From Naegleria gruberi (taxonomy: Eukaryota), in NCBI GenBank assembly GCA_000004985.1, contig GG738911.1: a stretch of DNA of 64,000 bases. One strand, given 5' to 3'. Below are positions 20,472 to 52,200 of the stretch, piece by piece. The notes under the pieces were generated by a model. That model was not told the origin of the DNA. It made no database searches and was given only the letters and a program-made list of their open reading frames with translations. Position numbers and translations under genes: made by a program. Numbering within the stretch: position 1 is the stretch's first letter; the number at the start of each line of letters is the position of its first letter.

Positions 20472-23400
20472 ATGCCATTTCAAACGATTCTTTTGACACT
20501 TTTCAAAATGGTAAAAGCGTTGCTTTTGAACATGAATTGTGGACTCCATCACTTTAAAAAAATGAAATCAGTTCTATCGTTTGAGCTTGGACTCTTACTG
20601 CTGATATTGGCATGTTTGATGAACTCTCAGTTTGTCAACACTCAAGCTATCAAATCTCGCATTGTTTCAACATTGATGAATAAGAAGGATGTGAATCGTC
20701 CACAAGATTTAATTGAAATGGGGCAAGTGTATGCAACTACATTTCGTAAAGGAAGTAATGGAGAAGAAGATTCTTTGTTGTTTATTGATTCAGGAAATTT
20801 GAAAATGTATGGATTGGTCAGCAAGAATTTCACAACTCTCTATTCATCTATTTATTACGTATCTTTTCAAATGCCTTTGAATCCATTGAACAACGACGAA
20901 TTGGTATTCCATCATAACGCTCAATTGTTAAAGTTGAATATCAAAACTTTGACAACTGAAAGATTGGCAGGTACAGGTGTATTTGGTTACAATGGAGACA
21001 ATATCAACGCTACATCCGCCCTCATTCAACCAGTTCAAGCCATTAATTACAATTCAAATAATGAGTTGGTCTTTGCAGGTAAGTTTTCATGTTAGAAATT
21101 GTTTTTGATTCACACAACAACAGACAGTTATAGAATCAGAAAAATTCTATTGAATGGTACCATTGTAACCATTGCTGGTCTTTCAACAGCATGTGATGGA
21201 GTGACTAGTGTTTTAAGCAATATTCCAGCAACATCAGCTTCTATTTGTTCTGTAACATCAATCCTTTTTGTGAAATTTGCAGGTTATCCAGAAGAGTGGC
21301 TCTATTTCAGAGATCAAGTTGGTGTGAAACGTATTGATCCAACCACTGGAGTATTATCCATTGTTTTTGTGTACTCTTCCTACTATGCCTTTTATTTGAA
21401 TCCTGTTCAATCTGACAGATCTAGGTTGATTCCAGATGATTTATGGCTTGGATATGGCTCGTATGCTGTTGAAATATTGAAAAATAATGGCCTTGGTCAG
21501 GTTATTATTGGTGGGGGTCAAAATCAGACCTTTTTAGTGGCAGACGCAAAGTCTGTTTCCTTGTCCACAATAACAAGTTTTGCCTACGATCAAGAAAAGA
21601 ACGAATTGTACATTGGTACTTATGGATCGGTTGTTAAATATGTTAGATCAGATAGAACTATTAGACATATTGTTGGTTGTGCATCAAGTAATTGCTTGTT
21701 GAGAGGAGTCAATATTGATGCTCAATATGCTAGTATGTCTTCCGCTAAACCAAGTGTATTTTTTGATAATGGTCAATTGTACTTAGCAGATAGCATAATC
21801 ATTAAGGGTATTGATTTGAAGAGTAGATTAATCAAGAATTATATTTCCCATGAATGTAAGTAGATGAGAAATCTTCATGTTCTAACAATATTATTTCAGC
21901 TATGGATTCTATCAATTACATGACCTACAAGAATGGTTTAATCTATTTACATGAGGGTTCTTACTCATCCACCTTGTTGAAATTTAATCAAACTTCTTCA
22001 GTTGTGGCTAAAATTGCTGGATATTATTATTACTCAGAAGGTGGTTTAGCAATGAGTAATTCTGTCGATTCACTTTCCTCCTTTTCCTTCAACTCAAAGA
22101 ATGAGATTATCATGTCAATTGGCGATCAAATTAAGACTATCAGAAATGATAGAATATACACAATTGTACCAAGCTCTTCATATTATGCATCTGCAGACAA
22201 TGCATCATTCGCAGAGGCAAGACTTTATGGACCTTCTCAATTAATTTCTCATCCAACAAGGGATAATGAAATGTATTTCATGGAAACAAGCAGAAATATC
22301 ATTAGAAAGATGGATTTTACAACTAGTAGAGTATTGACTGTTGCTGGTAAAAGTAATGGATTTGCAGGAGATGGATATTTGGCCACCGAGAGTGCCATTA
22401 AAGTTAACTGTTTTACTATGGATGAATACGGAAATATTTACTTTACTGATGGTGCCAAATTGAGAAAGATTGACCAATCAGATTCTAGAATTTCCACATT
22501 AACTTCGTCTACTTCGGGCTACAGTTCAGATGGTACTGATCTATCGTCTCTTTCGCTCTCAGCATCTAGCTGTGTCCTCTCTGTCAAGAATAATGTCATT
22601 TATTTTGTTGAGGATAAATCTGTTAGAAAGATTCATCCAACATGTGAAAGTGGTTACATTCTTAATACCAACAGCAATGGATGTGTTGCTTGTCCTTCAG
22701 GATTGACCAACGATGAATATTTTTATGAATGTGTTCCTCAATGCTTTGGAAAGATCAATCCAAATGCTTGCTCCAAGAACGGTAAATGTACATCTAACAA
22801 TGTCTGTACATGTAATCTAGGATGGACAGGAGCTGAATGTTCTCAGACTACCTGCTTTGGAATTACCAACTCTGATTCTAATGTTTGCTCAGGAAGAGGT
22901 TCATGTCAAGGATTAGACACATGTAAATGTTTGGATGGTTTCAGAGGAAGAAATTGTGAATTTACAGCTTGGAAAGATGGTGATGTGACTGTTCAAACAG
23001 ATCAGGATGAATATGTGTATCGTAGTACAGAGCCAATGGTCTATGTCAAATTCAATACTACTTATTCGAGATCAGTTACATTGAAAATGGAACAGAGATC
23101 ATCTTATTATAACATAATTAGAAGTACGATTTATAAGAATTTGACAGCTGCCGAGTTGACCACTGTTTATTCTCAAAAATTCATTAATTTCAACCTCCAA
23201 TATGGTCACATATTTGACGTTACAGTATTTGACGCTGAGACTGGTGTGCAATTATCAAACCCAGCTTCCAAAGATGTCAGTGTTATTACTTGTGCCACTT
23301 GTCAAGTTGCCAATCTAATTCCTCAATATTTACAAATGGCCTACAACAATACTAGACCAAATCCTGGAGATACAGTCAGTGTTAAGATTAGCATGTTGCA

Positions 23401-24670
23401 ATATTTCTATTATGTGTATACATTTGATATCACCGTTACGTTTAACAATGTCACCTATTACAAGCAAGCTATTTCAACAGTGGGTCAAGAAGTTACAATT
23501 TATATCCCTCCAGTTTTCGAAAATGGTACCTTTAGAACCTATGTTTCAGTATATGGCCAACCATATTACAAAAATTCAACCTATTTGATGCTTAGTGCTT
23601 CTACTAGTGAACTGGCAGTTTACAATCAAACTCTATTTGTTGAGGACAGTTGGATTAGTTCTAGTTTCAGTGTTGATAAGATCCCTTACAAGAGTACCTA
23701 CACTACTAGTACATTGGATATGAAAATTGCTCATATTGACTTCACATCTCTATTTAAATACAAGCAATTGACTGCCAATGTGAGCATATTCTTGATTGAT
23801 GAATTTGGAAATAGAAAAAATCAAATCTATGCTAATTCTCTTCAATTCTTGGGCAGTAATCCAGTTCTGTCAATTCAAGTTCCAAAAACCGCTTTCAGCA
23901 TTCGTTCTGATTGGACTTTGGATGGATTTATTACCATTCTCAATAATGGAACAATAGTTTCGAATGTGAAAAAGACAATCAAACCAATTACTTTTTATTG
24001 TCCGTCCTCTTACTTTGGACCTCAATGTGATTTGACAATTTGCAACGGAGTTTATTCCAATTCTACAAATGTTTGCTCTGGAAATGGTATTTGTTCTTAT
24101 TCCTATTGTTATTGTAATCAAAATTACAAGGGATCAAATTGTGAAATGCCAGCATTGAAATCCTCTTCTGTCATTACAAAACTCGATGCACCTTACAAAG
24201 TCAAAGGTTCACTTACATTATCCAACTTGACAATTGCTATTAATGCAAGTGATTCTGAATTCTTCTCCTATTATAGAAACAAATCGTTGATTTGCTATGT
24301 CTATGCTCAATCAACAACCTCAAATTATATTGGATATATTACATTGGACAAAACTAATGATTTTACTGTTTCCGTTAAACTTCCAGATACATTACTCCTT
24401 GGAACCTATACATTCAGACTCAACATTCAATCAAGTAGTGTAATAATCTTGGACACTGGCTCTTTTTATTATTCAACCATTTCGTATACAGTTGGTTCTC
24501 AACCGTTACCTCCTGCAGTGGTGAGCAACAATAACCAACCAAGCAAACCAAAAGTTTCGACTAATGGACCTAACAGAGAAACTACATTGAGTGAGGGTAC
24601 ACCTAACTCAGTAATGATTGGAATTAACTTGTGGATTTTACTCGTATTGACATTCTTAATAAATTATTAA
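20472..24670 (+). CDS. secreted protein with NHL-like beta-propeller repeats, tenascin-type EGF repeats and a C-terminal hydrophobic tail (GPI or TM). Three exons: 20472..21078, 21124..21855, 21900..24670.
   Basis: Signal-like hydrophobic N-terminus. Repeats GVFGYNGDNINATSALIQP...ELVFADSYRIRKILLNGTIVTIAG fit the NHL consensus. EGF modules C.NGKCTSNNVCTCNLGWTGAECS, CSGRGSCQGLDTCKCLDGFRGRNCE and CSGNGICSYSYCYCNQNYKGSNCE. C-terminus IGINLWILLVLTFLINY. Two very short introns (45 and 44 nt), both GTAAGT...CAG; each contains an in-frame TAG, and splicing joins the three track ORFs in frame. Confidence 0.65.
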
Positions 24671-28251: not shown

Positions 28252-29769
28252 TTAAGAGGACTCTGTAAATTGCCAATGATAATACTTTTGCAAAATATCT
28301 TGAGGTTTTCTAAATTGACATTCATCAACAAGGTGAAGAAAATATTTCACAAATTGAGGAATATTCTTAATAATCATATCATTGTCAAAGTTTACCATCT
28401 GTGCATAATAAACTCCATAAGTTTGTTCCAATAAACTTGCTTGTTCCCAGAAACCTTGATAGAAAAATCCACCACTCGGCAATATTTCCAAAACTGCCAA
28501 TTTTCTTGGTGCGAATCTAGAATTGTAAAAAGCTGCTCCATGTGGTCCAAATATTGCCTTTACATTGGCAAAGAATTTTACAATTTCACTCAAATTGGCG
28601 AAATCTCTGCTATCAAATGTCACCAATTCTTCATTCAAATTTCGTTTCAGCAATTCCACTTTTAAATGTTCCAAAACAGCATCCTCATTAAGTATCATTC
28701 TTCCTCCATTTTGACTGTCGCCATTACTTCTTGTAAAGTAGACAATTTTCTTTCTATCTTTGAATGGAATATCGAATGACAAGTTCAATTGAAAAAGTAT
28801 TTCATTTGAAATTCGTTGAGTGGTGAATGGATGAACGAGTGGACTTCTGCAGGAGTAGATTACTTTCTTGGCATAAATTGCACGTTTATGGAAATGATTG
28901 TGTGCAATAATTTGATAAATTTCATTGACAAATTGGTTGGTAGGCTCTTTTCCAGCAAGTATTGAAGATTTTCTTCCTGCTGTCTCAGAATTTTCCAATG
29001 TTGCTTGTCCCCATACTACAGTAACTCTATCCAGAAAGTGTTGGAAACTGAACGAATCTGGACTTGTTGAAATAATCAAAGAATCGACCGATTCATATGT
29101 TTGCAACGGAGTTGGATTCGTTTTTAGAAATTTTAAATGAGAATTCGATTGACCAACACAATTATTCTCACTCCATTCATCACTGTCAACAATTGGATCA
29201 ATATAAACATTATTAAAAACTAAAATTTGACCATTGATTGATGGGTAAATTGCCCATTCATTATCTGGACTCCATTTCATTAGAATAGAATCTCTAGATT
29301 GTTCCATCCATATTTTCTTTTGCTTTTCATTGAAAAATTTAGGAGCTTTGATTTTGAATGAGTGGTAGATTAGTTCAATTCCTTTTTCTATATTCGAATC
29401 TTGATTTTGTAAACATGGAGCTGAGAATTTGTACATTCCACTTTGACAATCCTCAATTTTAATTGGCATCCACTGCGAAATGGTCAATTCTTGATAATCT
29501 ACATCTTTTTCCAGCTCAAAATTCGTTTCTTCTAGTTTCGTATTCCACAGAAATTCATCACTTTCATAAAATAGGTCAGCATGTTTTGTCGAGTTGGATG
29601 GTGTTGGTGTAATCTTTCGTAATATCCTCAACAAAATCATTGTTGTCAACATGAACATCACAACACATATTAAAACTGCCAATTTAATTCTTCCATAACT
29701 TTTTGATGGACTGCTGACAGGTACATTGTAGATTGGAAGAGAGTAATGGTGAAGAGCTTGCTGTGCCAT
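28252..29769 (-). CDS. glycosyltransferase family 61 (DUF563/EOGT-XylT-like), type II membrane protein
   Basis: N-terminal signal anchor LAVLICVVMFMLTTMILLRIL. C-terminal GT61 hallmarks R.ILNEDAVLEHL...FDSRDF...VKFFANVKAIFGPHGAAFYNSRFAPRKLAVLEILP..GG.F...YGVYY. Confidence 0.7.
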   Translation of the reverse strand: MAQQALHHYSLPIYNVPVSSPSKSYGRIKLAVLICVVMFMLTTMILLRILRKITPTPSNSTKHADLFYESDEFLWNTKLEETNFELEKDVDYQELTISQWMPIKIEDCQSGMYKFSAPCLQNQDSNIEKGIELIYHSFKIKAPKFFNEKQKKIWMEQSRDSILMKWSPDNEWAIYPSINGQILVFNNVYIDPIVDSDEWSENNCVGQSNSHLKFLKTNPTPLQTYESVDSLIISTSPDSFSFQHFLDRVTVVWGQATLENSETAGRKSSILAGKEPTNQFVNEIYQIIAHNHFHKRAIYAKKVIYSCRSPLVHPFTTQRISNEILFQLNLSFDIPFKDRKKIVYFTRSNGDSQNGGRMILNEDAVLEHLKVELLKRNLNEELVTFDSRDFANLSEIVKFFANVKAIFGPHGAAFYNSRFAPRKLAVLEILPSGGFFYQGFWEQASLLEQTYGVYYAQMVNFDNDMIIKNIPQFVKYFLHLVDECQFRKPQDILQKYYHWQFTESS

Positions 29770-30197: not shown

Positions 30198-31553
30198 TTA
30201 CAAATTCGATTGAATAAATTCACCAAATTTTCTAATGAAAATTTCAGGATTTCTTAATAAGCCAATAGCTCTGTTTCTTCCCTTTTCGGTCATAATGTCC
30301 GCAGCTTTTTGTCCTTTAACCTCAATGATTTCCTTCTTTCCAATTAGACCATTAATACTTCCCAAACTCAATTCAAATTTTCCTGATTTTTCCTTATTTT
30401 TTAACATTGAGGCAGTTGAGGAAAATTGTGGAGCTACCTTTTTGATTTGCTGAATGAAATTTGACATTTTGACAATATTTGTACCAACAGTGATACCTTC
30501 TCTGACTGCTGAACCTGCCAATTTTTCGTATGGAAGATCTGTCACATCACCAAGTGAGAAAATATTTGGATGGTTGACAGTTTGATAGAAATCATTAACT
30601 TGAATGAAACCTTGAGAATTTCTTGCAATATGACTTCCTTCCAACCATTCAGTATTTGGAATCATGCCTCCACACCAAAATATCATACTTGCTTTTGGAA
30701 GTTCAATAACTTGTTCACTAGTCAATTCTGCATTTGGAATATTCGGTTTTAAAACAATTTCCTTCTTAATCAATGGATTAGTTTCCTCCCCAGACGAAAC
30801 CAATTGAGAAACATCCTTATAAAAAGCTCTCTTTCCCATAAAAACTTCAACTCCATTCTTCACCAAATGGTTATAGATATAATTGTGTGCAGTTTCAGAA
30901 TTTGATCGATCTCTCAACAACTTTCTACTATGAACGAGAGTTATTTTGAATGGTTCCAATCCGTGCTTTCCTCTCCATTGATTGACATCAATTAATTCAC
31001 CTGCCAATTGAATTCCCAAAGCTCCTCCTCCAACAATGACAACATGATCATTTTCCTTAGAGGTAATCTTGTCATAGAATTGATGAAATTCGTGTAATCT
31101 TGATTGAGGAGTGACAGATTCAATCTTTTCAATGTTTGCCTTAATATAGTCTGTCTTGTATCTGCAGCCATTTGCCAAGATTAGGTAATCGTATTCGATA
31201 GTTTCTTCTCCCTTAATGGAATTTCCATCCAATTGTTGAATTGTAATCTTGGAATGCTCGGTATCGAGTTTGGAAGCTTGGGAATGACTAATCATTTTGA
31301 CAGAATATCCATTTCTCTTGTCAAAAGTCTTTTCAAGTTCATCCAACAAGACATGTGAATTTTCATGATGATATTCTTGTGGATTGACCATATAACGTAA
31401 AGTAAAGATAGATGACTCGGTGAAATTCTTCTTTTCAATCAATGTAATGTTAAATGTTTGACTTTTGGCAACAAAATGTGAGGTCAAAGTTGATAGAACT
31501 GATAATCCAGCAACTCCTCCTCCAACAATAACTACTCTTGGTTGTGTACTCAT
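30198..31553 (-). CDS. AIF-like (AIFM2/FSP1/AMID-type) FAD-dependent pyridine nucleotide-disulfide oxidoreductase
   Basis: Two Rossmann dinucleotide-binding motifs, PRVVIVGGGVAGLS and DHVVIVGGGALGIQLAGEL. C-terminal IFSLGDVTDLPYEKLAGSAVREG aligns with the AIFM2 pattern AIGDCADV..PKMAYLAG. Probable start is MSTQPRVV; the track start is upstream. Confidence 0.8.
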   Translation of the reverse strand: MSTQPRVVIVGGGVAGLSVLSTLTSHFVAKSQTFNITLIEKKNFTESSIFTLRYMVNPQEYHHENSHVLLDELEKTFDKRNGYSVKMISHSQASKLDTEHSKITIQQLDGNSIKGEETIEYDYLILANGCRYKTDYIKANIEKIESVTPQSRLHEFHQFYDKITSKENDHVVIVGGGALGIQLAGELIDVNQWRGKHGLEPFKITLVHSRKLLRDRSNSETAHNYIYNHLVKNGVEVFMGKRAFYKDVSQLVSSGEETNPLIKKEIVLKPNIPNAELTSEQVIELPKASMIFWCGGMIPNTEWLEGSHIARNSQGFIQVNDFYQTVNHPNIFSLGDVTDLPYEKLAGSAVREGITVGTNIVKMSNFIQQIKKVAPQFSSTASMLKNKEKSGKFELSLGSINGLIGKKEIIEVKGQKAADIMTEKGRNRAIGLLRNPEIFIRKFGEFIQSNL

Positions 31554-31877
31554 GATGATGATGTATTCTTGATGTTTGAATATTTGTTTTTGAATTGGAA
31601 ACAATGTTGAGCTATGTGAAAGTGCGTTCTTAAAGAATTTAACATAATGGAGGAGGAATTTGCGCATATTTAAAGTTATTACCCCAATAATAACAATAGT
31701 GGGCCAAGGAGATCGTCATTATTAAATCACGCAATTCCTTGGTTACAAGGTTCACTCTTGTTTTAAATATCCTTCATTTTGTCCAATCGTCTTTTTTGTT
31801 ATAATTTCAAAAATGGTAATTTTCAAACTCTGTAATTTTAATGAGTATTCTTTGATGATGAAAATTGTGGAATGATA

Positions 31878-34800
31878 TTAAATACCATAGACAACGTTGG
31901 CCTTCTCAATGATTTGCATTTGAACATCTCTCACTGCCTTGAAATTAACATAATCTGGTGTGAAAACAAATCGAGAGAAGGTATCTCCCAAATTCATAAC
32001 CACCTGTCTCATCATTAATTCAAAACAATCCTTGACCATGCTATTTTCAATTCCAAGTTTTGATAGGGAATTTAAATCCAATAGCTCACAATTTGATTCG
32101 TCCAATTTCTTACATTTTTCATAGAGTTGAATGAATGCAGTTCTACTCTTTGATGGAATGTTAACTTCCATTTCTGCTCCAGTTTTGATGTACTTTTGGT
32201 AGATTCGGTCAGCAAAGAAGACTAATCCTCCAAGATTTTCACCAGATACCACATCTGTACTTGCTTTAATGTCAGAGAAGAGGAATAAATTTTCAGAGCT
32301 GAATTCCTTTTCACAAAAGTTTGCAAATAATTCATATCCTTCCTCAGATTCCAAAGTATTGTAAAGTTCTTGATTCATAATTTCATCGTTTTGCTTCTTT
32401 TGTTCTTCCTTTTTGGTTCTACGTTGTCTGAACTTGTAGACAAGAGCAACAATGAGTGCATAACCACCAAATACTAAAATATAGGAAATGACATAGAGTA
32501 CTTCAAAGATGAAGGAAATTGAATCAAATGTCAAGGCAAGTTTGAACATGGCCAAACTCTCAAATCTGTAAGACAAGCTGCTCAATCCAATAACTTGATT
32601 CAAGATGAGTAAAATGAAGGAAATAATATAAATGAACATTTCCATTCTGAAATAGAGAGGTCCATCCATTGAGGTAAACCAATGGAATGCTGTTAATAAA
32701 ATATTCTTATTGAGCTTCTTCTTTTCATTGATGTTTTCAGCATTATCAAGACTGAAAGTACTGGTAGGTTGTGAAAAGTTTACAGCTCTTCTTCTATTCT
32801 TCTTTTGATCAACTTCTTTCTTTGATGAGAGAATCATGTCAAGGATGGCGACAGCTGTAATAATCACACCAAATGTCAAAATACAAACTGTATAAGAAAC
32901 TGAAACAATGTAGGTATACTGTAATGAATCTAGAACTCCAGTTCTTCTCAAAATGACCCAAATAACCCAATAGACAACATTGACAGCAGCAAATATACCA
33001 ATCAATGAATAGAATAACACTTGTGAGGTTGCATACTTCAATGCTTTCAAAATTGTTGTACTTTGAGCTTGCGTTCTATTATCAGAGAGTTTCTTGTAGA
33101 GTAGTTTCATGAATTGGAATCTAAAAACTTGCATGACGTAACAGAAAATGGCTGTTAAATTGAGGGTGTTTACAATAATCATGACAATATTTGCAATGAT
33201 ATTGGCAGCAGCATCTCCACTTTCCCACATTTGACTATTTGCAGAATTCAATTGATCCACTAGAACAGATCTTTGTACAATATAAATCAATGTACATTCC
33301 ACAATTAATGCTATCAATCCAACATAAGGAGTAAGCAATCTAGAGCTCACAGGTTGAGACTTTCTCAAAACAATCAATCCAATCAAAATTGCACTTGCTG
33401 CAATCAAATAAATAATACCAAATGATATTTGGGCATAGTATAATGATGAAACTTGATCCTTGAGTTGAACGGTAAATGTTGTTGTCTTGGATTCAAGGAA
33501 AGTTGTAAACATGGTTGTGTGAGAACAAGCACATTCAATTGAGTTAGATGAAACTCTATGCAATGAACATCCATAACTGCTCCACATTTTGAGTTTCTCA
33601 TCCCAATACTTGCAATGATACGTACTGTTGGTAACAGTCGAATTGGAGATTATTGAGCTTGGAATAGTGGCAGCATTGAATGAAAGAATAAGAGGTGAAT
33701 CTAAATTATCCAAAACCAAGACATCTGTCTTTTTCATGAATTTGAAATCAGTAACAGAGGAGCTGAGGGTCATGTTACTAACTGAAGCATCATAATTTGT
33801 GTTCTTTGAATAAACTATCATTGTTGCTCCACAAGTCATTGAATAGGTGCCATATTTGGACATCACTGATGTCAAATTCATAGAAACCTTGCTTTCAGTA
33901 TCAGAAACGCTTTGCAAATTACTAGTTGGAGTTGGCACATTGAAACTAGAAACTGTAATATTAATGAGAGAAGATTTGTATGAACTTGTTGGTAAATCGG
34001 TTGAAGTAGAACTAACAACAGTTGGGATAGTTCCATAATAAATCAGAACAGTGACAAGACTAGCTGTCGATTTGGTTTTTTCAGAATCATATGAAGTAGA
34101 GAAGCAGTTTGAAATAACTTGAATTGTTTTGGAGATATCTGCACTGGAGAGGGATGATTTCACATAGCCATACAGAGCAAGTTCACTCAAATAAATGTCT
34201 GTCAAATTTGAAACAAATGAATCCACTTTGTTGATGACTAGACTGACGGTATCAGCTGTTAGTGTTTCATTATTGGATGTTAGTGTTTCCAAGCTTGATA
34301 AAGATGATGAAGGGTTCTTTGGATCAATTACTACATTAGAAATGAGGGCAGAGACCAATGATGACGATGCTGAACTTGTTGTAAAGGTTTGATCTACAGA
34401 GGCACCTAATAGCGACTCTCCACTCAAAGATTTTACAACTTCAATGTATTGCTCTTGAGTTCCATTAAATGGAGAGACTGTTACATTTGCTGATGCTTCA
34501 GTTTCCACATTTCCGAGGGCGTCCTTGACAAAGACAACCAGTGAGATTGTTTCTGTTGTTTCTAAAATACTTCTTGATTTGGTGGAAGAGCTTTCCGACC
34601 TAATGTAAGGTAAATAAGATGAGAAGGTAGTGTTGAGACTGTATTCAGTCAATCTAACAGACTCTGCCTTTGATTTATCATAATAACCAAATGCATATTT
34701 GAGTGGCAATAGTTCAGGTGATGTTGCAACCCATTCAGAAACCTGAATTGTAAACTTGTCATTCATTGAAATACCAGAGATTGGAGAAACGCTAACAAGA

Positions 34801-37800
34801 TTGGAAACACGTGTTGGAGGACTTGCAGAGGAGATAATTTGAATTTGAACAGAAGAGCTAATGTTTTGCTGCTTGCTATTGATAACTGTGAATGTGAACA
34901 AGACAGTCTCATTCAAATAGTTGGATGGAATGCTTGCTTGAATTGGAACTGATGGAGAAAATGATAATAGGTTAGTATTATCATATTTGGCCAAGACTGA
35001 ACCTGACCTTTTGTAAGAGAATACTCCTGCACTAACTTTCCATTCATAGGAAACCAAAGTTGAGCAATTTTTTCCACAACCTAAAAAGTATCTAATAGTA
35101 GTTGTGTTCAGAGTGATACTGTTAATAACAGTTGAAATGGTTTGATCTTGAGTACCTGAAACTAGAACAGATGGTAAACCAAAGCTTCCCAAAGTTGGCT
35201 CATTCAATTCATACTTGACTACTAATTTGAATTGTTGCAGGTTGGATTTTCTGCTTTGGAATGGTTGAATATTAGCAATGGATGCATTTGCAATGAAAGT
35301 GTAATTGCCTGCTTGAGTAACATCAGTTAATGTAGAGTTGATTAACAAACGATTGGATTCCACATAGAAAACCACATTTTGTCCATCACATTCAACACAT
35401 GACCAGGTGTAGGAAATATTTGGACTTTGGCTTAATACTTGATCTATTAATTGAATTTCCACACTGACAGTCTTGTTATCAAATTCCAAATAGACAACCT
35501 CTTCATATTTTGTAATGTTAATTTGGAATGGACTAATATTCACTGAACAATCCTTATTGGTGAATCCTTCAACACAAGAACAGTAATTTGGTGATACACA
35601 TTGTCCCTTTCCTGAGCAAACACTCGATTCGTTGAACAAGGTACCAAAGCAATTGTGCAATTCACATGTTTGGCCATAATATCCTGGTTGACATGTGCAG
35701 TTATCTGGAACAAAGCATGAACCATGACTTGAGCAAACGTTGGTATCATTAAAAAGAATTCCAAAGCAATTATGATTTGAACAATCAAATGAAAAATATC
35801 CTTCTTGGCATGAACAGTTATTTGGACTCAGACAAGTTCCATGTTTGAAACAAACATTTGAAGAATTCTTATGAACTCCAAAGCAATCATGTTCAGAACA
35901 TTCAGGTCCATAATACCCAGCTTCACAGAAGCAATTATTTGGAGATAAACATTGTCCATGAGTGGAACAAACATTAGAATTGTTAAATAAAGTGCCATAG
36001 CATTGGTGAGCTTCACACTGATATCCATAATATCCTGGTTGACATGTACAATTATTTGGAACTGGACATGAACCATGGCCACTACAAACATTCATTGTAT
36101 CATTGAATAAATGGCCATAACATTCATGGTTGGAACAATCAAATGAAAAATAACCGGTCTGACATGAACAATTATTTGGACTCTAACAAGTTCCATGCTG
36201 GAAGCACACATTCGAAGAATTCTTATGAACTCCAAAGCAATCATGTTCAGAACATTCAGCTCCATAATATCCAGCTTCACAGAAGCAATTATTTGGAGAT
36301 AAACATTGTCCATGAGTGGAACAAACACTTGAACTATTGAATAGAGTACCATAACAGTTGTGCAATTCACATGTTTGCCCATAATATCCAGCTTGACATG
36401 TGCAGATATTTGGTGAGTCACATGAACCGTGAGATGAGCAAGTACTACTATTTAAATGTTCCACTCCAAAGCAATTGTACAATCCACAATCAGATCCATA
36501 GAAAGGAACTAAACAACTACAATTATTATAGGCTGTACATGATCCTCGTCCTGAACAGACAGTTGAGGAATTCCTAGAAGCACCATAACAATCATAAATT
36601 TCACAATTCTATTTTCATCACATGTACAATTATTGAATGAATGACATTGACCGTGTGAGGAACAAATATTTGGATTGTTTGAGAGAACTCCATTACAAAT
36701 ATTAATTTCACAGAATTTGCCAGTATGTTGCTCATCACACTGACAAGTATCGAATGCTGTACAATTACCAAATCCAGTACACACATTTGTTTCATTTTTC
36801 AATATTCCACTACATTCGAATAATTCACAATCTTCTCCATAATAACCCTCTTGACAGGTACAATTTTCTGGTGAAGAACATGATCCATGTCCTGAACAAA
36901 CCATTGAAGAATTATTGATAATTCCATTACACATATAATTTTCACAATTATCTCCAAAGTATAACTCTGGACAAGTGCAATTATTCTTTGAATCACATGA
37001 TCCTACTCGAGAGCATACATTTGGTTGATCGAATCTAATTCCACCACAGTCATAGTACTGGCATTCAGATCCATATCTTCCTGCTTGACAATTACTACAT
37101 GTATTTGGTGAAGAACATGTTCCAAATCCACTGCAAACATTTGGATCACTTGGTGCAAGGCCATTACAATAATACAATTCACAAAATGTTCCTGAATATC
37201 CTGTTTGACATGAGCAAGTATTTGGACCAGTACATGTTCCACGACCATTGCAAACAGTACCAACTTGAGAATAGAGAATACTATTGCAATAGTAATTTGA
37301 ACACGTACTTCCTGAATATCCAGAATAGCATGAGCAACTATCTCGAGCATTACATGATCCATGTCCACTACAAGCACTCGATCCATATAATCCATAACAG
37401 AGATATTCATTACACTGAGAACCAGACCAAGTGTAGGTCAGTGAATTTCCAAAATACTGATTGGCTGTCCAGCAAACTTCCTTCTGGGCACCATAGAGTA
37501 CCAAATTACCATCTGATATTATCATTGATGATGTTGATGTTGATGGAATAAACAACTCACTCCATCATAACAATTCAATAGAAACTTACCTGATTGCATG
37601 ACTAATCTGAAAGGGGCTGTACCAGAGGTGCATGCAGAAGAAATTGTCTTTAAAACACCTCCCTGGTCTCGTATCTCAAGAGTGCCATCCAATGACAATA
37701 CTAAATTATACGGAGCTGTTCCTTGTCCATTAGTATCAGATGCCCAATAGGCAACCAATCCAGGTTTATAAAGCACCAAATTGCCATCCACTTGTTGTTT

Positions 37801-38088
37801 CAATTGGTAAATTCCATTCGATGAGTAAATAGAATTTGATTGATAGAGGTTGTTGGTTCCACCCGATGAATACAGAGTGTTACCACTTGTTGAATCCACA
37901 CAATAGCAATTATTTGACCCAGCACAGAAGCCATGTCCACCGCATGAGTTCAAATCTGTGGCCGAATAGCCATAACATGTATTGACAGCCAAAACTGAGA
38001 GTTGTTGTTGATGGTTGTGAAAACATGTCTGTACCACAAATGCAAAGACAAAATAGAGAAATAATGTGGAAGGTGCTTGGTGTTGCAT
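31878..38088 (-). CDS. giant receptor: signal peptide, bulb-type (mannose-binding) lectin domain, more than 25 tenascin-type EGF repeats, S/T-rich mucin-like stalk, GPS/GAIN-like motif, seven TM helices and a C-terminal RGS domain. The reading frame is disrupted in several places in this assembly.
   Basis: N-terminal MQHQAPSTLFLYFVFAFVVQTC. B-lectin motifs QQVDGNLVLY...AYWASDT and LSLDGTLEIRD. EGF units CSxHGxCxxPNNCTCQxGYYGxxCExHxCYG repeated many times. GPS-like C.YWDEKLKMWSSYGCSL......CACSHTTMFTTFL. Seven hydrophobic helices between about aa 890 and 1210 of the main ORF. RGS motif EGYELFANFCEKEFSSENLFLFSDIKA. The frame joins across about 37484-37560 by a short intron (two alternative acceptors), across about 36600 by a shift consistent with a 10-bp direct-repeat deletion, and across an in-frame TAG at 36183..36185. 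Confidence 0.7.
35550..36480 (-). repeat. recent tandem duplication (unit about 390 bp, 2-2.5 copies) of a four-EGF-module block inside the receptor gene
   Basis: Near-identical nucleotide stretches, for example gaactccaaagcaatcatgttcagaacattcag...ccagcttcacagaagcaattatttggagataaacattgtccatgagtggaacaaaca, occur at about 35880 and 36230. The protein blocks CSTHGQCLSPNNCFCEAGYYG[P/A]ECSEHDCFGVHKNSSNVCF[K/Q]HGTC are almost identical. Confidence 0.6.
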
Positions 38089-39107
38089 GTTTTTTTTGTT
38101 GTGTTGTTGGTAAAATTAATGTTCCTGGCAGATGACATGTCTGAAACTCAATTTGTTTCTGGTGACACTTTCTTGAAGATGGATGACACTTCAGACAACA
38201 GGTCCTTTTAGCCAAATTGTGTTACTGTTTTGCAAGTATGCACATGTACACTACCATCTGTGTAATGAAATAAATTTCATTATTTGGTCAACGGACAGTT
38301 CACTGAAGATCAGCTGAAGGATTTGAAGAGGCCTTTTCAGCTGGTAGTGTTACTTGACTTGTTGGATATGTTTCTAATTCCGATAATCAGTTTGATGGAT
38401 TCAAATATTAATAAGCACCCGATGAAGGAAAATCCTTTTTGATGATTATTTTTATTTTTTTGTGTTTTTGAGTGTTAATTTTTTTAACGGTAACAATTTT
38501 AAAAATATGAAAGAACAACCAAAGGTGCTGCTCACTCTTGAATGATAATACTTCATCAGAATCATCATTGGATTGTTCTCTGCATTTTGGATGAATTTTA
38601 GAAACATCTTCCGGTGAGGAAACATCATTTTGTTAAGAGTTAGTTGGTATTGAAAAAGAAGAAGAATATATTATGATGATTATCAAACGATTTACGGAAG
38701 ATGGAGGAGGATTACTGTTAGGAAATAGAGGAAAATTAATAAATTATCTGATGATGATGATGATGAATATTATCCGTAGTGATTGAGGAATTATCAGATA
38801 ATATTACAACATAATAATAATAATAATAACAATATTTCCAACAAGAAGGAAGATTATATTATCAGAACCATTGTAGATGGAAACAATGCAAAGGTCTACG
38901 AAAAATTACTGACTATTCTAGCTCAGATAATACATATCAGATTCTTCCTTAAATTATTTGGAATTCACTGAAACCAGAAATATTCAATCATTATTGAATA
39001 GGAGTTGTTATATCACTTACTAATTTTGGTAAAAGACATTCCACAATTGAAATGTACACACTGAATAATAACTGAAAAGATTCTAAACACAAATTACAAT
39101 TATTGAA

Positions 39108-42603: not shown

Positions 42604-44352
42604 TTATTCTAAATATCTAAATAAAAAATCCAATTCCAATAAACCTCTTCCAAAGCACATAATAATCAAGTCAGCAATCAAATATTTCTTCTTTCCAATT
42701 TCCACAACTTCGTCTCTAATATCATTAACAATAAGACTCAGAATAGATTCGCCTTCTTTTCTCATAGTGACAACTCTATACGATTCCACTAGCATTTGAG
42801 GATCAAGCTCTAAATTTTCCTTATCCATCAGACCTTTCTCCAACAATTGGCTGACGATAGAGTTTGCATTGAATGGCAACCATTTTTTGATTACTTCAAA
42901 AGATGAGGCAGTATGCCCTAAGGAGGTATGTTCAAATTTCAATCGGCATTCAAGGGAGCTTAGGAAATCAGAGAACTTGCACTTGAGAGAGCGATCAGGT
43001 TTTTGGAGCATTACGTGAACCGGAAAGTCAAATGCCAATTGACCATTCTTGCTCAATTCTGAGGGATCCAACAAGATATGGAAATCACCAAAAGAAAAAT
43101 ACTCTGCATATCTGCTTGCGCCCAAAGGTGGTTCCAATTGGAACAAACAATCTTGAGAATCATTATTGTTGAGAGCTTCTTTCAATGAGGAATTCATCTC
43201 GAATTTAGAAAAACTCTTCCATGCAATATGAGACAAATAATTGACCGTAATTGATTCGTACTCTCTTCTCTTGATAACATTGGGAAATCTAGCACCAAGG
43301 TCCTTCAATTGAGAATAAACCTTACGTGTTAGAGGTAGGTCAATTGAATGAGTTTCTAATACCAAGGAACAAACATAAATATCGTCTGAAGATATGTACA
43401 TAGTCTTTGAAACCTTGTCAAGAAACACATCTCCTGCTTTAAAGCAAATATCTCCAATCCAGATTTTCTTGATAATTGCATGAGTTGTCTTATCATAAAG
43501 AAACATATAGGTACTATCCCTCAAAACAAGATAATGATCCAATTCACCAACAAAACGCAACCAACACTGAAATTTGACTCGTTGTTCACAATTTGAGAAG
43601 TTTCTACCAGTGAATAATCTGAGCTCTGATGTTTTGTCCTCAGTTCTAGTATTAATCCACAATGCATCTCTATTAGAATCATAGGTTATAGAATATGTGT
43701 TTTCTAACCTCAAAGTATCAACAAAGTATTTGTGTTGTAAAGTACTTCCATCCAAAACATGAATCTGTCTATCATTCGAAAGAATGACTTCATTTCTGGG
43801 AAGTGAATATTCCAACAAATCAGCTTCCAGATTTGTAATTCCCAAATTCCTTCTTTGCAAAACGGTGAATTTCCCATTGGGATCGATTTTAGCCTTCACC
43901 AAGTCCTACACGATTAAATCATCTGGACTTTCGTCTGGAGGATTCTCCTGAACAATACACATTGGATAGAATGCAATAAGATCACCCAAATCACACCGAT
44001 GAATAAATTTCTTACTGTCCATGTCGAAGACATGCAGAAAACAATTCGAGTTTGGTCTATCACTACTTTCGGAAACTATTATCAATCGTTTCTTCATGTG
44101 GATTCTAAGGTCGAGGGTTGTCTCGATTTCTATTTGAAAAGTGTTCAGGTGAGATAGAAAAGCCTTCTCCAAGCATAGAAGAGTTGGAGTGGAAAGTTTC
44201 TTCTCCAACCATAAATGTGTGAAATGTTTCTCCAAGATTCCATCAATGAAAACTAAACGGACTGGTGCGTGAGAGTCAAGGCTTTTTTCAATGTTTCTGT
44301 ATTTAGCTTTAGGTTCGTAATCATTCACCTCAAAGATATGCTTTGTTTTCAT
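42604..44352 (-). pseudogene. family X paralogue with an in-frame TAG (43906..43908) splitting it into two same-frame ORFs; either a pseudogene or an assembly error
   Basis: ORFs 43906..44352 and 42604..43902 are in the same frame, separated only by TAG (...PDDLIV*DLVKAKIDPNGKF...). ATG at 44352. Conserved family blocks (YEPKAKY, VRLVFIDGILEKHF...KLSTPTLLCLE, LEPPLGAS and others) are present in both halves. Confidence 0.5.
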
Positions 44353-44576: not shown

Positions 44577-46391
44577 CTAATCCTCGTAAATGTCATTGTG
44601 GAAACTAAATACTTCTTTTTCGATAGCCAATGCCAATAAATCCATTAATAAATATTCCTTATTATTAAAGATCACCACATTCTTCCTGAACTTTTTCAAA
44701 ACCTTTAGCAAGTCTCCAAAATTAGGTGACAATGTAATATTTCTATAAACGTCCAATAACTTTCCAGAATCGAGCTCAAGAGTTTGTGGATCAATTAATG
44801 AATTATTATTTAAAGATTTGTACATTTCTTGCAAGTTAAATTTGATCTCTTTTGTATAATAATCATTTTCAAGACCCACACTAACGCATGGTTTTAAAGT
44901 GTCCAGAAAATCTGATAATTTACATTTGACAGTGAACTCTTGTGGTACACAAAGATACACTGGGAAATCTGTCAAATTCTTTCCGTTTTGTTGCAAATCT
45001 GATTGCAATACTGCTAAATGGTAATCATCGGGACTAATTGAGTTTGCACCAATAATGTGAACTTGATCAATTGGCAAATAATCGGATAAATACTCTAAAT
45101 CTGGTTTGATATTTTGCAATGCAATAGTAAAATCTATAGATTTTAGCTCGTCAACTACTTGCTTAAGGTCACAATCCACAAACTCGGAAATTACTGAAAC
45201 ATCCTTAAACCCCTTAAATTCTACAAGTTGTTTAAATCCAAAGTTCATATTTGCTAGAAAGCTCACAACGTTTGGCACATTATTTTCCCTCACAATCACT
45301 TGGGGTAACTTTGCTCCAAGTCTTTCCAATTGCAAACATATTTCCTCACCCAAAGGTTTATCTATAGAGTAAGTGTCTAATTTCAATTCTAATTGATACA
45401 CTTGCTCCTTACCACATGAAAATATGGTTTTAGAAACTCTATCGTATGCGTAAGCCTCCATCAGTACATCATCTCCAATTTTTTTGATAACCATGTGACT
45501 GGATTTGTCAATTAGATACAGACCGTCCTCATATCTAAGGACATGAAACTTATCAAGCTCCATTTCAAACATTAATTCCACCATCCCAATACGATCATCT
45601 TGTTCTACAGAAAATAATATTTCACTCTTTGCAAAGGTTGGACCATAATATTTTCTCACATAATGCTCCGAACTATGGCCATTACCAAACACTAACAAAT
45701 AATCAGAATGGGGATAATAACGAACAACATATTGTGCGTCATCATCAATAAATGTATACTTGAACACCAAGCTATCTCCATCAAATACTAGAATTTTTCC
45801 AAAGTTCACAACCATTAACTCATTTCTAGGTCCAATAAATTCCAAATTTGCACAAGTAAAGCTATCTGCATCCATTACTGGTTCTACTTCTTTCATAATT
45901 GGGAACTTCTGATCTGGATCAAGTAGAATTTTCATCAAACAATAATCTTGCGAAATAGTATACAAGATTTCTTTCCCATCACCATTTTCTACAATGTGCA
46001 TTGCTATCACATTTCCATGGAAATGATTAATATCATATAGAACATTTCCACTCTCTAAACAAACAATAAGAATTGAAGCCTTGTTGTTGGCGGCAAGTAG
46101 CCACCTTTTGGTGGGATGTATTGTTATGGATGGTATGCCATAGTCTTCTTCCGATAATTTAAAGGTTTTAAGAGTGATGAGACTAGTCTCTTCCAAACAA
46201 GTTATTGTTGGAGTGTGGAGTTTCTCCCGAAGCATTGAATTCGTATAATGATTCTCCACTCCATCAAGAAATACCAATCTTGTGAGATTTTCAGAGTCAT
46301 CATTCTCTTCATCATGAAGGCTTTCAATTTTCTTCTTTTTTAATTTTGGTTCGTGTTCGCTGATAGTTTCTTCAAGAAGCCTTGATTTCAT
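44577..46391 (-). CDS. family X paralogue
   Basis: Probable start MKSRLLEETISEHEPKLKKKKIESL, matching the MKS...EPKLKKKKIE start of the neighbouring paralogue. Conserved RLVFLDGVENHY...KLHTPTITCLEE, PLGEEICLQLERLGAKLPQVIV, YLLMDLLALA and other blocks. Confidence 0.6.
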   Translation of the reverse strand: MKSRLLEETISEHEPKLKKKKIESLHDEENDDSENLTRLVFLDGVENHYTNSMLREKLHTPTITCLEETSLITLKTFKLSEEDYGIPSITIHPTKRWLLAANNKASILIVCLESGNVLYDINHFHGNVIAMHIVENGDGKEILYTISQDYCLMKILLDPDQKFPIMKEVEPVMDADSFTCANLEFIGPRNELMVVNFGKILVFDGDSLVFKYTFIDDDAQYVVRYYPHSDYLLVFGNGHSSEHYVRKYYGPTFAKSEILFSVEQDDRIGMVELMFEMELDKFHVLRYEDGLYLIDKSSHMVIKKIGDDVLMEAYAYDRVSKTIFSCGKEQVYQLELKLDTYSIDKPLGEEICLQLERLGAKLPQVIVRENNVPNVVSFLANMNFGFKQLVEFKGFKDVSVISEFVDCDLKQVVDELKSIDFTIALQNIKPDLEYLSDYLPIDQVHIIGANSISPDDYHLAVLQSDLQQNGKNLTDFPVYLCVPQEFTVKCKLSDFLDTLKPCVSVGLENDYYTKEIKFNLQEMYKSLNNNSLIDPQTLELDSGKLLDVYRNITLSPNFGDLLKVLKKFRKNVVIFNNKEYLLMDLLALAIEKEVFSFHNDIYED

Positions 46392-46499
46392 TTTTTTGTA
46401 AAATATTTCCATTCCATTTAGGTAATTAATGGATGTTAATGTTTGATTGATGGACCATTTAAACAAGCTTTACCAATTACTGTTAAATAATAAATTGAA

Positions 46500-48368
46500 C
46501 TATTCATCATTCTCAGAGTCATAAAAAGTTTCAGTTTGGAATTGTATCAATTCTCTTTTTCCACTAGCTTGTGCCATGACTAATAAATCTACCAATAAAT
46601 ATTCCGTCTTGTTGATTGTTACAATATGTTCCTTGAGTTCTTGATTAACCTGGAGCAAAGTACTAAACTGAGGTTTAGTTGCTACATTTCTGTAAGATTT
46701 TAATAATATGGTAGGGTTGAGCTCTAAAGAAATTTGAGAAATTAATGAATTATTCTTTAAAGCTTCGTACACTTCTTGCAACTTGAACTTGAACTCTTTG
46801 GTATCGTCATCCCTTTTAAGTTTCACACTAATGCATGGTTTTAGAGTGCCAAGGAAATCTGATAATTTACATTTAAATATATTCTTTTCTCGAATAACTA
46901 AGATTGGAAAATCTGTTAAATACTGTCCATTTTGATGCAAATCTGATAGTAATACTCCTATACAATACTTATCGCACCGAACTGAGTGACCACCAATAAG
47001 AAACACTTCGTCGTTTGGAAATTTGGTTGGAAAAAGGCCCTTTAAATCTTCCTGTACAATTGTTTTAAAACTAAAAGAGAAATCATAATGTACACCTCTA
47101 ACCTTGTCAAGTCTAACAGGCTTGTTTTCAATTATTTCATAATACTCAGAAATTAGTGATTGGTTCGCAACCCCTTCAAATTGAAGTTCAGCGAACGGCT
47201 TTGGTTCCGACCTCATTTGTTTCAAAAAGCTCACTGCATTTGGTGTATTGCTTTCCTTAACAATTACTCGAGGTAAATTTAATCCAAGTTTTTCCAATTT
47301 TAAACAAACATCCTCTTCCAAAGGTTTATCAATAGAGTAAGTGTCTAATTGTAATTCTAATTGATAGACTTTCCTCTCCCTAGTATATCCAAATATTGTT
47401 TTTGAAGCTCTATCGTAAGAATAGTTTTCTATCAGCAAATCAGTCTCAATTTTTTGGAGAAGTAAATGGTTTGATTTTTCGATAAGAAACAAGTCGTCTT
47501 CTACTCTCATTACGTAAAACTTATCAAGCTCCATTTCGAACAGTAATTCCGCAAGCCCAATACTATCATCCAGGTCAACGTACATTACCATTTCACTTTC
47601 TGAAAAGTTTGGTCCATAGTATTTCCTTAACACATGTTCCGGGTAATTATTAGAAAATACGAATAATTGATCATGAATTGGATTATAATGAGTGTAGTAT
47701 GTTCGATACAATTCACTTTCACTTGCAAACTTCGTCTTCACGAAAAATTCACCGTCAAATACTAATAATTGGTTTGTAAAACCCACAAATAACTCATTCC
47801 TAGATTCAATAAATTTCAAATCTGTAATATCACCAAACTGTAAGAATGATCTATGGTTCAAAATTGGTAAATCCCTCTCTGTATCAAGTTTGATTTTTAG
47901 TACTTCTCTATGGCTATACAAGAAGACAATATCATTATCCCCATGCTCACTCTCCACAATACACATTCCATAAACATCATTATCAATTTCTAATCTAAAA
48001 CTGTGCAATGTTACTCCACTCTCCAAACTGATAATTTTAAAACCAATATGATCAGAATCATCTTTTAAACAAGTAACAACAAGCAACCATTGCTTTTTTT
48101 GATGTATTTGAATGCATGATATTCCATCCGATATTTCAAATGTTCTACGAACAACAAGTTTAGCCCCCTCCAAACAAGTCATCGTGGATGGATTGCAAAG
48201 TTTCTTACAAAGCAATGAATTCATATAATGTTTCTCAATTCCATCAAGAAACACCAATCGGGTGCGATCGTCATCATTATTTAGATGATCTTCAATCTTC
48301 TTCTTTTTTAATTTTGGTTCATACTCGTATTGACCATCATTCATTTCCTCATCATTGTGTGATTTCAT
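46500..48368 (-). CDS. family X paralogue
   Basis: MKSHNDEEMNDGQYEYEPKLKKKKIEDH start. Strong co-linear similarity to 44577..46391 (for example VFDGE, RKYYGPNFSESE, ELLFEMELDKFYVMR, YQLELQLDTYSIDKPLEEDVCLKLEKLG, FKCKLSDFLGTLKPC). Confidence 0.6.
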   Translation of the reverse strand: MKSHNDEEMNDGQYEYEPKLKKKKIEDHLNNDDDRTRLVFLDGIEKHYMNSLLCKKLCNPSTMTCLEGAKLVVRRTFEISDGISCIQIHQKKQWLLVVTCLKDDSDHIGFKIISLESGVTLHSFRLEIDNDVYGMCIVESEHGDNDIVFLYSHREVLKIKLDTERDLPILNHRSFLQFGDITDLKFIESRNELFVGFTNQLLVFDGEFFVKTKFASESELYRTYYTHYNPIHDQLFVFSNNYPEHVLRKYYGPNFSESEMVMYVDLDDSIGLAELLFEMELDKFYVMRVEDDLFLIEKSNHLLLQKIETDLLIENYSYDRASKTIFGYTRERKVYQLELQLDTYSIDKPLEEDVCLKLEKLGLNLPRVIVKESNTPNAVSFLKQMRSEPKPFAELQFEGVANQSLISEYYEIIENKPVRLDKVRGVHYDFSFSFKTIVQEDLKGLFPTKFPNDEVFLIGGHSVRCDKYCIGVLLSDLHQNGQYLTDFPILVIREKNIFKCKLSDFLGTLKPCISVKLKRDDDTKEFKFKLQEVYEALKNNSLISQISLELNPTILLKSYRNVATKPQFSTLLQVNQELKEHIVTINKTEYLLVDLLVMAQASGKRELIQFQTETFYDSENDE

Positions 48369-49292: not shown

Positions 49293-52200
49293 TTAATGTA
49301 AAGTTTCATCTTCTGGTTGAATTTCACTAGATACATCTTCACCAATGAAATTATCAGCATTTGCATTCAATTCTTCACTGGTCAAGACAGCAGATTCGTG
49401 ATGCTTTGCAGAGAGGAGGTAAGTTTGTGTCATTCCCTTGCCCTTAACTTCAATCATTCTCTCTTCGAATGAAAAGCCCAAGTCATATACTCTCTCATAG
49501 GTAGACCGAGAAACTTGAATTCTTCCTGGCTTGGAATTTGATTCCATTCGAGAGGCTGTATTGATTGAATCACCCCATAAATCATAGGCAAACTTCTTAC
49601 GTCCAATGACACCTGCTACAACTGGTCCAGTGTTGATACCAATTCTAATGTTAACTTGTTCTTCAAATCTTCCCTTTCTAAAGTTGGAATTGAAAGAACG
49701 AATCACTCCAAAGGTATCAATGGCAAACTTTAAGACTCTTTCAGGATGGTCTGATTGAGCATTCAAATCATGCAAACCACCTGCTGCAAAGTAAGCATCA
49801 CCAATTGTCTTGATCTTTTCCAAATGATAACGATCTGTCAAATCGTCAAAGCCCATAACAATTTGATTCAACATTTGAACCAATTCATTAGGAGCTAATT
49901 TTGAAGATAAACTAGTAAATCCAACCATATCTGAGAAAAAGCAAGTGATATCAGCAAATTTCTCGGCAATCAATGATGTGCCATTTTTAAGTTTTGCTGC
50001 CACTGCTCCTGGTAGAATGTTCAATAATAAAGTTTCAGAGTTTTTCTTCTCCTCAGCAAGGAGAGCATTATGCTATATTATTGTAAGGTTTTAAGATGAT
50101 TATTATAGAATAGAACATGTAAAAAAACTAATAAAAAGAAAACAAACCTTCTTTTCTGATGTAATATCCTTAATAAAGCATGTGATAATTGGTTTCTTCT
50201 CAAAGAGAGTTACAAAAATATTCATTTTGGCTGGGAATGTAGTTTGATTCTTTCTAATACATTCCACGTCAAAGGATTCACCCTTTGGATCAAATTCTGT
50301 GACAGTTTGTTTCATACTGTCTACAGCTTTTCTAATTTCATCATGATGTTGTGGACACAGGAGTGTAAACAGCAATTTACCAATTACATCTTCCTGTTGA
50401 TTTCCAAACATTCTTTGAGCTGCTGGATTGAAAATTTCAATATCACCACGATGGCTACACAAAATGACGCCATCAACAGCAGCATTTAAGATATTTCTAA
50501 CTTTGGCATCTTCTCCCCCAACATTTCTCTTCTTGACAAATAATCGAGATAGGGCACCATCGCTGAGAGAGTGATAAAGAGCATAATTTCTCAATTGTTC
50601 ATTATTTTCAAATGTTTCAATTGATAAATAATTGAATAAGGACCTTAGAGAAAAGACATTCTTCCAGTGTATCCTTAAAAAGTAGTACATAATTACACAA
50701 CCAATAAGGTTGACTGTAAATCCAACAATGGCCAAAGCTGTTATTTGAGTTACCATTGGAGTTGAGGATTTAACAGCAAAAATAAGTGAAAAGTCAATCA
50801 ACTTGAACGATGCAGTATTAGCCAAAAAAGCAACTGCATAAAATTCTTGCAAGATAACAAGCAAGTCTTGATAGTTGGAAGTTTTGGTTGTTGCAACCAA
50901 ATCTTCGATAATTCTTGAGGATTTGAGAATAGTATCCTGAACCATATAATCAATACCAAAATCACATTGTGTGTAATTGTCTGGTTTGTATCCTTTTGGA
51001 ATGACCATGGCATTGTATATTGAAGAGACAGATTCAATTGTACAATTCAAATCCCCACGAATCATGTGATCAGTTTCTGGAAACATACCGACAACTAGAG
51101 TTTCGTACGCCTTAACAGCAGAACCATACATACACAAATTCCAAAAGTATCTCAATTTGAAAACAACATAGTCAAAGTTAGTCCTTAGCACTTTGATATC
51201 AGATTCTGCGAGTATGGGTATTTCATCTAGTCCATAATTGTTCAACATATTTGTGGAAGAATGATAGAATTGTTCTGCAACATTGAAAGACAATCGTTGT
51301 AAGAATGCCATTGCATCAAAACCATCTTCCATGGTAATGTAAGATTCAAAACTGTACTTGGAATTTCCAAGAGTTTCTTTAAGGAAAATACCCAAACTGA
51401 CAGACACAGCAATCATTACAAAAATACCAATAATGATAAAGATATTCTTCGGTTTAAGAATGGAGGTCTTGGGAATATGAATAGAAACTTCATCACCAAC
51501 TTTCTTACCAAGATCATGGAAGAGTTTACCAACTTCATTCTTTGACACATGGGTGTGAATTAGTTTGATTTGCTGTTTCATTGTAGAGAGTTCAAATCTA
51601 CTATATAGCAGGTAAATTGTTGCATAAACCACATAGAACGCAAGAACAACAGATGTAAATATGGTAAAGGTGTCGTTAATTCTTAGGGCATCCTCCTTTG
51701 CAGAATCTGTAAAAACTCTGCAAAACTTTTGATAGGCATAAGTGATGGTTTCTTGATTTCTGTACATGAGCATAAACCCATAACTATTTAAACTATTCAT
51801 TAATTGGTCGTCTCCACTGTTAACCATTTGATCAGAAAGCTTTACAAGAACATTGGTAATATCAGTAATGGTCACATTTTCTGCCATGGTTTCGTTGTAA
51901 AACTTGGTTTCCATTGTTGCATCTGATTGCATTTTTGGAACATAGAAAGGATAGTAAAATTCATGGTAATGTGAGTAAACTGATGGATTGAATTTGGCAT
52001 CATAGGCCTTTTGTTGTAAATTAACCAAGATTTGTCTCAATTTTACAATGTTCTGTTTCAGCAATTTAGGGCTAAGGAACATTTCACTGGTCATTGTTTT
52101 TGGAATTGAAGAAGACGTGGAATTCATTAAATTTACAGTAGATTGATAGGCACGAACTGTTACCAACATATTTGACAATGCAGCTATTGGCGAACAAGCA

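Follow-up and report, generated by a model that had tools for sequence, protein, structure and literature searches.

The window analysed here, a stretch of 64,000 nucleotides of the Naegleria gruberi contig GG738911.1, contains on its minus strand a receptor gene running from 38088 down to 31878, with its ATG at 38088 and its stop codon at 31880-31878, as delimited by six-frame translation and reconstruction. Its 6.1-kb coding sequence is split by a single intron of 77 nt (37513-37589, minus strand, phase 1), with GTAAGT...CAG borders and a strong donor; removal of this intron joins ...RLVMQS to DGNLVLYGAQ..., and the spliced junction agrees with that of an intact paralogue (LLVQNDGNIVLYGAQ). 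GTAAGT also occurs at two ORF junctions (21079 and 21856) of a neighbouring EGF gene (20472-24670), which are presumed introns. The reading frame of the receptor gene is interrupted by two lesions, and its conceptual product reaches 2,047 amino acids once 10 nt are added and an in-frame TAG is read as Leu.

The domain composition of this conceptual product is that of a large modular receptor. The N-terminus read from the ATG is hydrophobic, and the N-terminal domain is lectin-like, with a Pfam B_lectin score of 20.9 bits that stays under its cut-off of 32.4. An array of 16 EGF-like modules, as counted by the cysteine pattern, occupies residues 200-825 (35550-37414, minus strand), and Pfam EGF_2 recognizes 11 stretches of it (2e-60). 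The GPS (GPCR proteolysis site) motif HCKYWDEK...CACSHTTMFT lies at 33504-33617 on the minus strand (Pfam PF01825, 32.8 bits, cut-off 22.5). The 7TM block (residues 1534-1859; 32445-33422, minus strand) consists of seven hydrophobic segments, which appear as seven peaks above 1.6 in a Kyte-Doolittle scan; no Pfam 7tm match to this block was found at E ≤ 1. The C-terminus is formed by an RGS domain (residues 1888-2025; 31947-32360, minus strand; Pfam PF00615, 35.9 bits, cut-off 23.9). The window contains only two runs of N (3300-3368 and 56171-56385). Each is separated from the lesions by about 20 kb or more, and these assembly gaps mark the window as part of a draft scaffold.

The intact paralogue is the N. 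gruberi protein XP_002672594.1 (UniProt D2VTE9), of 2,047 amino acids and 82% identical over 99% of the query. Its source names it “B-lectin domain-containing protein.” It possesses the same 16 EGF modules with their three-module duplication, together with the GPS, 7TM and RGS parts, and the global alignment of the two proteins shows 12 single-residue gaps only, with no module missing or extra. From about residue 300 on, identity amounts to 85-97% over most 100-residue windows, whereas the lectin-like N-terminus is far more diverged (51-59%). Unlike the gene in the window, the paralogue is intact, and it lies on another scaffold (331,721 bp vs. 261,328 bp). The FAD-oxidoreductase gene that flanks the window copy has no duplicate alongside the paralogue. 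A haplotig or a large segmental duplication was considered and rejected: a protein identity of 82% is too low for a haplotig, and the downstream FAD-oxidoreductase gene (30198-31667) found only its own 100% match and no ~80% twin. More distantly, N. fowleri and N. lovaniensis have orthologue-like proteins, which the protein search retrieved at 41-43% identity. A scan of metagenomes with a 336-aa query spanning the lesions gave 16 pattern matches, none of which (0/16) was a relative.

Part of the EGF array is internally repetitive. Tandem Repeats Finder (TRF) reports a 354-nt (three-module) tandem repeat of 2.2 copies with 80% matches over 35641-36432. By TRF and alignment, the first copy (354 nt, three modules; 36018-36371, minus strand) holds the premature TAG, whereas the second, delimited by alignment (351 nt; 35667-36017, minus strand), is intact and carries CTG at the matching codon. 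The copies are 80% identical overall, with a 114-nt core that is 98% identical. The initial annotation had described a duplicated block with an “older copy,” a wording that is only loosely right: the internal repeat exists, but both copies also occur in the paralogue, and the internal duplication therefore predates the gene duplication. The presence of this repeat, with its nearly identical core, speaks for another of its suggestions, namely that the defects arose when near-identical tandem repeats collapsed in assembly, to which a chimeric join of repeat copies may be added as a variant. We reject this explanation as extremely improbable, as the number of modules (16) and the total length equal those of the paralogue with no block missing, the copies share only 80% of their positions overall, the frameshift is situated in module 7, outside the repeat defined by TRF, and the gaps are far away.

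The first lesion met in the direction of transcription is the frameshift. A frame switch near 36600 had been proposed, and it is indeed found at about 36611|36610, where the junction reads GAT GAA AAT / AG / AAT TGT GAA ATT (36606-36613, minus strand) and comparison with the homologues places 10 missing nucleotides between 36611 and 36608. The upstream frame reads ...CTCDENRIVKFMIV... / ...QCHSFNNCTCDENRIVKFMIVMVLLGIP... and ends at the stop at 36511-36509, so that translation from the native ATG would give 467 native and 33 aberrant residues, the latter forming the out-of-frame tail RIVKFMIVMVLLGIPQLSVQDEDHVQPIIIVVV that leads into the premature stop (36509-36610, minus strand). The downstream frame is closed by TGA TGA AAA TAG up to 36609, and then opens with NCEIYDCYGASRNSSTVCSGRGSC... 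(NCEIYDCYG...). The 10-nt size given to the deficit in the initial annotation holds, since with 10 nt inserted and Leu in place of the TAG the gene counts 2,047 codons, precisely the length of the intact paralogue.

The identity of the lost bases is another matter. It had been suggested that slippage removed the second tandem copy of TTGTGAAATT(T), which is contradicted by three homologues at the junction: the N. gruberi paralogue reads SFNNCTC DENYSGQN CEIYDC, the N. fowleri protein SFNNCTC RAGYYGNN CELYDC and the N. lovaniensis protein SFNNCTC NTGYYGTN CEFYDC (homologue readings DENYSGQNCEIYDC, RAGYYGNNCELYDC and NTGYYGTNCEFYDC), following the pattern ...CTCxxxYxGxN-CE[ILF]YDC. The window copy retains DEN (GAT GAA AAT) in the upstream frame and N-C-E-I (AAT TGT GAA ATT) in the downstream frame, with only AG in between. 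Judged by these homologues, the upstream-frame DEN and the downstream-frame N-CEIYDC are both ancestral; as both are kept with only AG between them, the loss lies between 36611 and 36608 and took the codons for Tyr-Ser-Gly-(Gln). The window copy lacks Y-S-G and a part of Q, which amounts to 12 nt minus the two retained bases, or 10 nt. The exact bases, deduced from protein comparison, would be TATAGTGGTC: if an ancestor ...AAT TAT AGT GGT CAG AAT TGT... is assumed (the codons being an assumption), its subtraction reproduces the observed string exactly. The suggested reconstruction of the junction, RIVKF-CEIYDC with a lost second copy of TTGTGAAATT, was discarded: RIVKF is an out-of-frame reading and no remnant of coding sequence, and the model would put Val at the position of the Gly that is conserved in 12 of 15 modules, and Phe at that of the Asn shared by the three homologues.

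The second lesion is the in-frame TAG at 36183-36185 (minus strand; plus-strand CTA), codon 613, in EGF module 11. It had been pointed out beforehand and is present in the minus-strand reading ...VCFQHGTC*SPNNCSCQTGYFSFDC... (...VCFQHGTC*SPNNCSC...), as is the matching CTG in the other repeat copy (TGT CTG AGT vs. TGT TAG AGT). The paralogue carries Leu at this position in the global alignment (HGACLSPNN). The accompanying argument, that such a stop takes two substitutions, is sound only when the CTG of the other repeat copy is taken as the starting point; if the Leu codon was TTG, a single change is enough, and thus the two-substitution argument alone does not exclude a base-call error.

Neither lesion is removed by splicing, nor is the stop explained by a different genetic code. 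A total of 226 GT..AG pairs would restore the frame, and were rejected as rescuing introns because none has a GTAAGT-type donor and all of them remove sequence that is coding in the paralogue; in contrast to the real intron, the surroundings of the frameshift contain no strong donor. A variant code was also discarded: the TAG is the sole in-frame stop over a length of more than 2,000 codons, the same frame runs for more than 1,400 codons free of any other, and the ORFs of the neighbouring genes are long and clean.

Apart from these two positions, the gene has the appearance of a constrained one. All paralogue cysteines are conserved in the window copy (121/121). After polarization with four outgroups, 37 lineage-specific changes fall on the window copy vs. 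55 on the paralogue, a difference (binomial p = 0.08) whose direction is opposite to relaxation. Changes are in excess neither on the 5' side of the lesions, nor on the 3' side, nor in the stretch that separates them, where identity to the paralogue (85.6%) is as elsewhere. The coding sequence is AT-rich, and 5.9% of single-base changes in it give rise to a stop, so ~3.6 new stops are expected per 1% of neutral divergence; one is seen, and the probability of at most one stop is 0.13 at 1% divergence and 0.006 at 2%. Relaxed constraint in the window copy, in the form of faster or unbiased substitution or of loss of key residues, was not found. The complete set of cysteines, the lack of acceleration and the lack of further stops together limit the neutral time to less than about 1.3% divergence, vs. 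a protein divergence of 17% between the paralogues. The absence of relaxation is compatible only with a very recent inactivation or with an artefact.

The second of these possibilities, that the gene is intact in the organism and that at least one of the lesions is confined to the draft assembly (by low coverage, a deletion in a clone or a consensus of mixed reads), is the main rival, although we regard it as unlikely. The full set of cysteines, the lack of acceleration and the absence of further stops would look no different if the gene were intact and its sequence contained two errors. In the same direction, a span of 430 nt holds both lesions in a gene of 6.1 kb (a chance of ~0.14), a possible hint of local low quality, assembly gaps elsewhere in the window mark a draft scaffold, and a TTG ancestor would need just one wrong base to become TAG. 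On the other hand, two independent disabling errors in one gene are improbable, and the lesion region lies inside a contig. The stretch around and between the lesions contains no 1-nt indels, as a poor-quality one would, and the reads of the paralogue, at 82% identity, are too divergent to merge into the consensus. A clean loss of 10 nt is atypical of read errors, and a deletion of this size is not a typical base-calling error of Sanger sequencing.

We therefore favour the first possibility, namely that a duplicated 7TM-RGS receptor gene has probably become, very lately, a pseudogene or null allele. Among the readings proposed in the initial annotation, three in number, “recently inactivated gene” is thus the one retained: two disabling lesions of defined size and position sit in an otherwise conserved coding sequence, and an intact sister exists elsewhere. 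The gene is homologous to this intact gene, its disabling lesions cannot be removed by splicing, and the homologues, whose frame runs through both sites with sense codons, support the pseudogene reading. The lesions would then belong to the DNA of the organism and the locus would be functionally null, maybe as one allele of a heterozygous locus. In mechanistic terms, a duplicated member of the Naegleria lectin-EGF-GPS-7TM-RGS receptors would have lost its reading frame very recently in strain NEG-M. The deletion of 10 nt, which falls in the last loop of EGF module 7 (36611/36608), would shift the frame, with translation from the native ATG halting at 36511-36509 after ~500 residues; the nonsense change of a Leu codon to TAG (36185-36183) lies some 425 nt downstream of the deletion. 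With frameshift and stop combined, the native ATG would yield only a secreted lectin-EGF stub, devoid of the membrane and RGS parts, and the function would presumably be covered by the intact sister XP_002672594.1.

It could alternatively be argued that the lesions are real and the locus is still in use, either as a split gene, in which the native ATG would serve a secreted lectin-EGF fragment and Met643 an N-terminally truncated EGF-GPS-7TM-RGS protein, or by recoding (frameshift and TAG readthrough) into the full-length protein; taken jointly, these options are very unlikely. The 3' 1,435 codons are open and have a public model, and the lectin-EGF protein expected from the 5' ORF, which retains its hydrophobic N-terminus, would be soluble; recency, however, explains the open 3' ORF equally well. 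The product starting at Met643 has no hydrophobic N-terminal segment ahead of ~890 residues of ectodomain, which makes a correct topology unlikely. Regarding recoding, no slippery heptamer (X XXY YYZ) is seen by inspection at GAA AAT AGA ATT GTG, and the downstream frame is closed by stops as far as the junction. The TAG stands in the context TAG AGT CCA, and TAG-AGT is not known as a leaky context. Nor is either feature common to the homologues, which have Leu and ordinary in-frame sequence; for readthrough, another reading of the initial annotation, we find nothing in favour. The more far-reaching version, in which the gene would be undergoing fission or neofunctionalization into a 5' secreted lectin-EGF protein of 500 aa and an independently initiated 3' EGF-GPS-7TM-RGS protein, or would use a frameshift plus TAG readthrough new to Naegleria, is highly improbable.

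Reading the locus as a young pseudogene or null allele has a direct bearing on its annotation. The public model NAEGRDRAFT_74131 / XP_002670859.1 (strain NEG-M; 1,405 aa) is 100% identical to the gene in the window and begins MNVCSGHGSC, that is, at the first ATG after the TAG (36093-36095, minus strand), and no public model was found for the 5' part of the gene. This annotated protein, with an internal Met as its start and no signal peptide, is probably not a real product but a by-product of gene prediction. None of the papers searched mentions NAEGRDRAFT_74131 or its accessions. The main value of the analysis is consequently an annotation fix: the entry deserves a flag that marks it as a disrupted member of the XP_002672594.1-like 7TM-RGS receptors, and counts of N. 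gruberi receptors would then not list it as a separate architecture with a short N-terminus. Real lesions would make the locus a datable case in which a free-living amoeba has very recently lost a gene of an expanded family of sensory receptors; to link this loss to heterozygosity or to the long laboratory culture of NEG-M is speculation. The finding itself is ordinary and touches no open question; duplicated genes commonly end in this way.

The receptor family to which the locus belongs, with lectin, EGF, GPS, 7TM and RGS parts, is already described in Naegleria. Bosch et al. (2022, J Biol Chem, PMC9283941) report 28 7TM-RGS genes in N. fowleri, several of which also encode EGF repeats, lectin domains and GPS motifs, and with a family of this size the loss of one copy is unsurprising. 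As in the Naegleria 7TM-RGS receptors (PMC9283941), whose prototype is the plant AtRGS1, seven putative TM segments are followed by a C-terminal RGS domain in the window gene, and its ectodomain matches the lectin-bearing subset in its EGF-like repeats and GPS, next to a lectin-like N-terminus. The RGS domain, the seven hydrophobic segments and the ectodomain with EGF and GPS of this subtype are all found in it; unlike working Naegleria 7TM-RGS receptors, however, the full protein cannot be made, and because its frame is interrupted we file it as a disabled copy of the family and not as a working member. The metazoan adhesion GPCRs (GPS/GAIN) also display a large adhesive ectodomain (EGF, lectin) with a GPS right before TM1, but the RGS C-terminus and the lack of a Pfam 7tm match set the window gene apart from them, and the likeness concerns the logic of the ectodomain only. 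With respect to its decay, the gene differs from young duplicated (non-processed) pseudogenes and null alleles of multigene families in that no relaxation of constraint is measurable so far, and it resembles them in its retained intron, its intact paralogue and its combination of one frameshift and one nonsense mutation.

Within the internal tandem repeat of the receptor (a 354-nt unit encoding three EGF modules), alignment of the two copies delimits a 114-nt core, 36214-36327 against 35860-35973 on the minus strand, with only 2 mismatches (98% identity), whereas identity is 80% over the whole repeat and approximately 75% in the regions flanking the core. The intact N. gruberi paralogue, P0001 (XP_002672594.1), likewise carries two repeat copies that are near-identical over the peptide matching this core. 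Either modules 10/13-11/14 are very strongly constrained or, as the pattern would also suggest, gene conversion has acted within the gene. The premature stop codon (TAG) of the receptor lies some 30 nt outside the core.

Over the lectin-like N-terminal residues 1-200 (37414-38088), the two N. gruberi paralogues share only 51-59% identity, compared with 82-97% over most of the remaining receptor and 74% at residues 1001-1100; polarised changes in this segment are found on both paralogue lineages (7 vs. 16). Judging from these comparisons, the putative ligand-binding end of the receptor looks to be diversifying rapidly. The intergenic sequence upstream of the receptor ATG (38089-39107) is of low complexity, with runs translating to poly-Y, poly-H and poly-I.

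Elsewhere in the window, a family of seven ORFs, of 430-630 amino acids each and with pairwise identities of 22-45%, occurs in a dispersed and tandem arrangement (1844-3439, 16179-17867 and 17911-19740 on the plus strand; 14395-16155, 42604-43902, 44577-46466 and 46500-48368 on the minus strand). A Pfam scan of three of the seven returned a match for none (0/3), and the family appears to be a lineage-specific expansion of unassigned function. Assembly gaps are present as runs of N at 3300-3368 and 56171-56385; the latter falls inside the overlap of the minus-strand ORFs 54918-56393 and 56099-59875, and the gene spanning them is thus broken by a scaffold gap, making any model of it unreliable.

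Ordinary neighbours, all on the minus strand, are a GT61 glycosyltransferase (28252-29769), a protein of 1,465 amino acids that combines TPR_TmcB with a PAS domain at its C-terminus (50103-54500), and an FAD-dependent pyridine-nucleotide oxidoreductase (AIF/NDH-2-like; 30198-31667), whose ORF comprises 489 amino acids vs. 451 in the public model. On the plus strand, three successive ORFs at 20472-24670, spaced by 3-38 nt and containing GTAAGT donors at 21079 and 21856, probably constitute a single multi-exon gene, the last exon of which displays EGF-like similarity to the receptor (38-45%).
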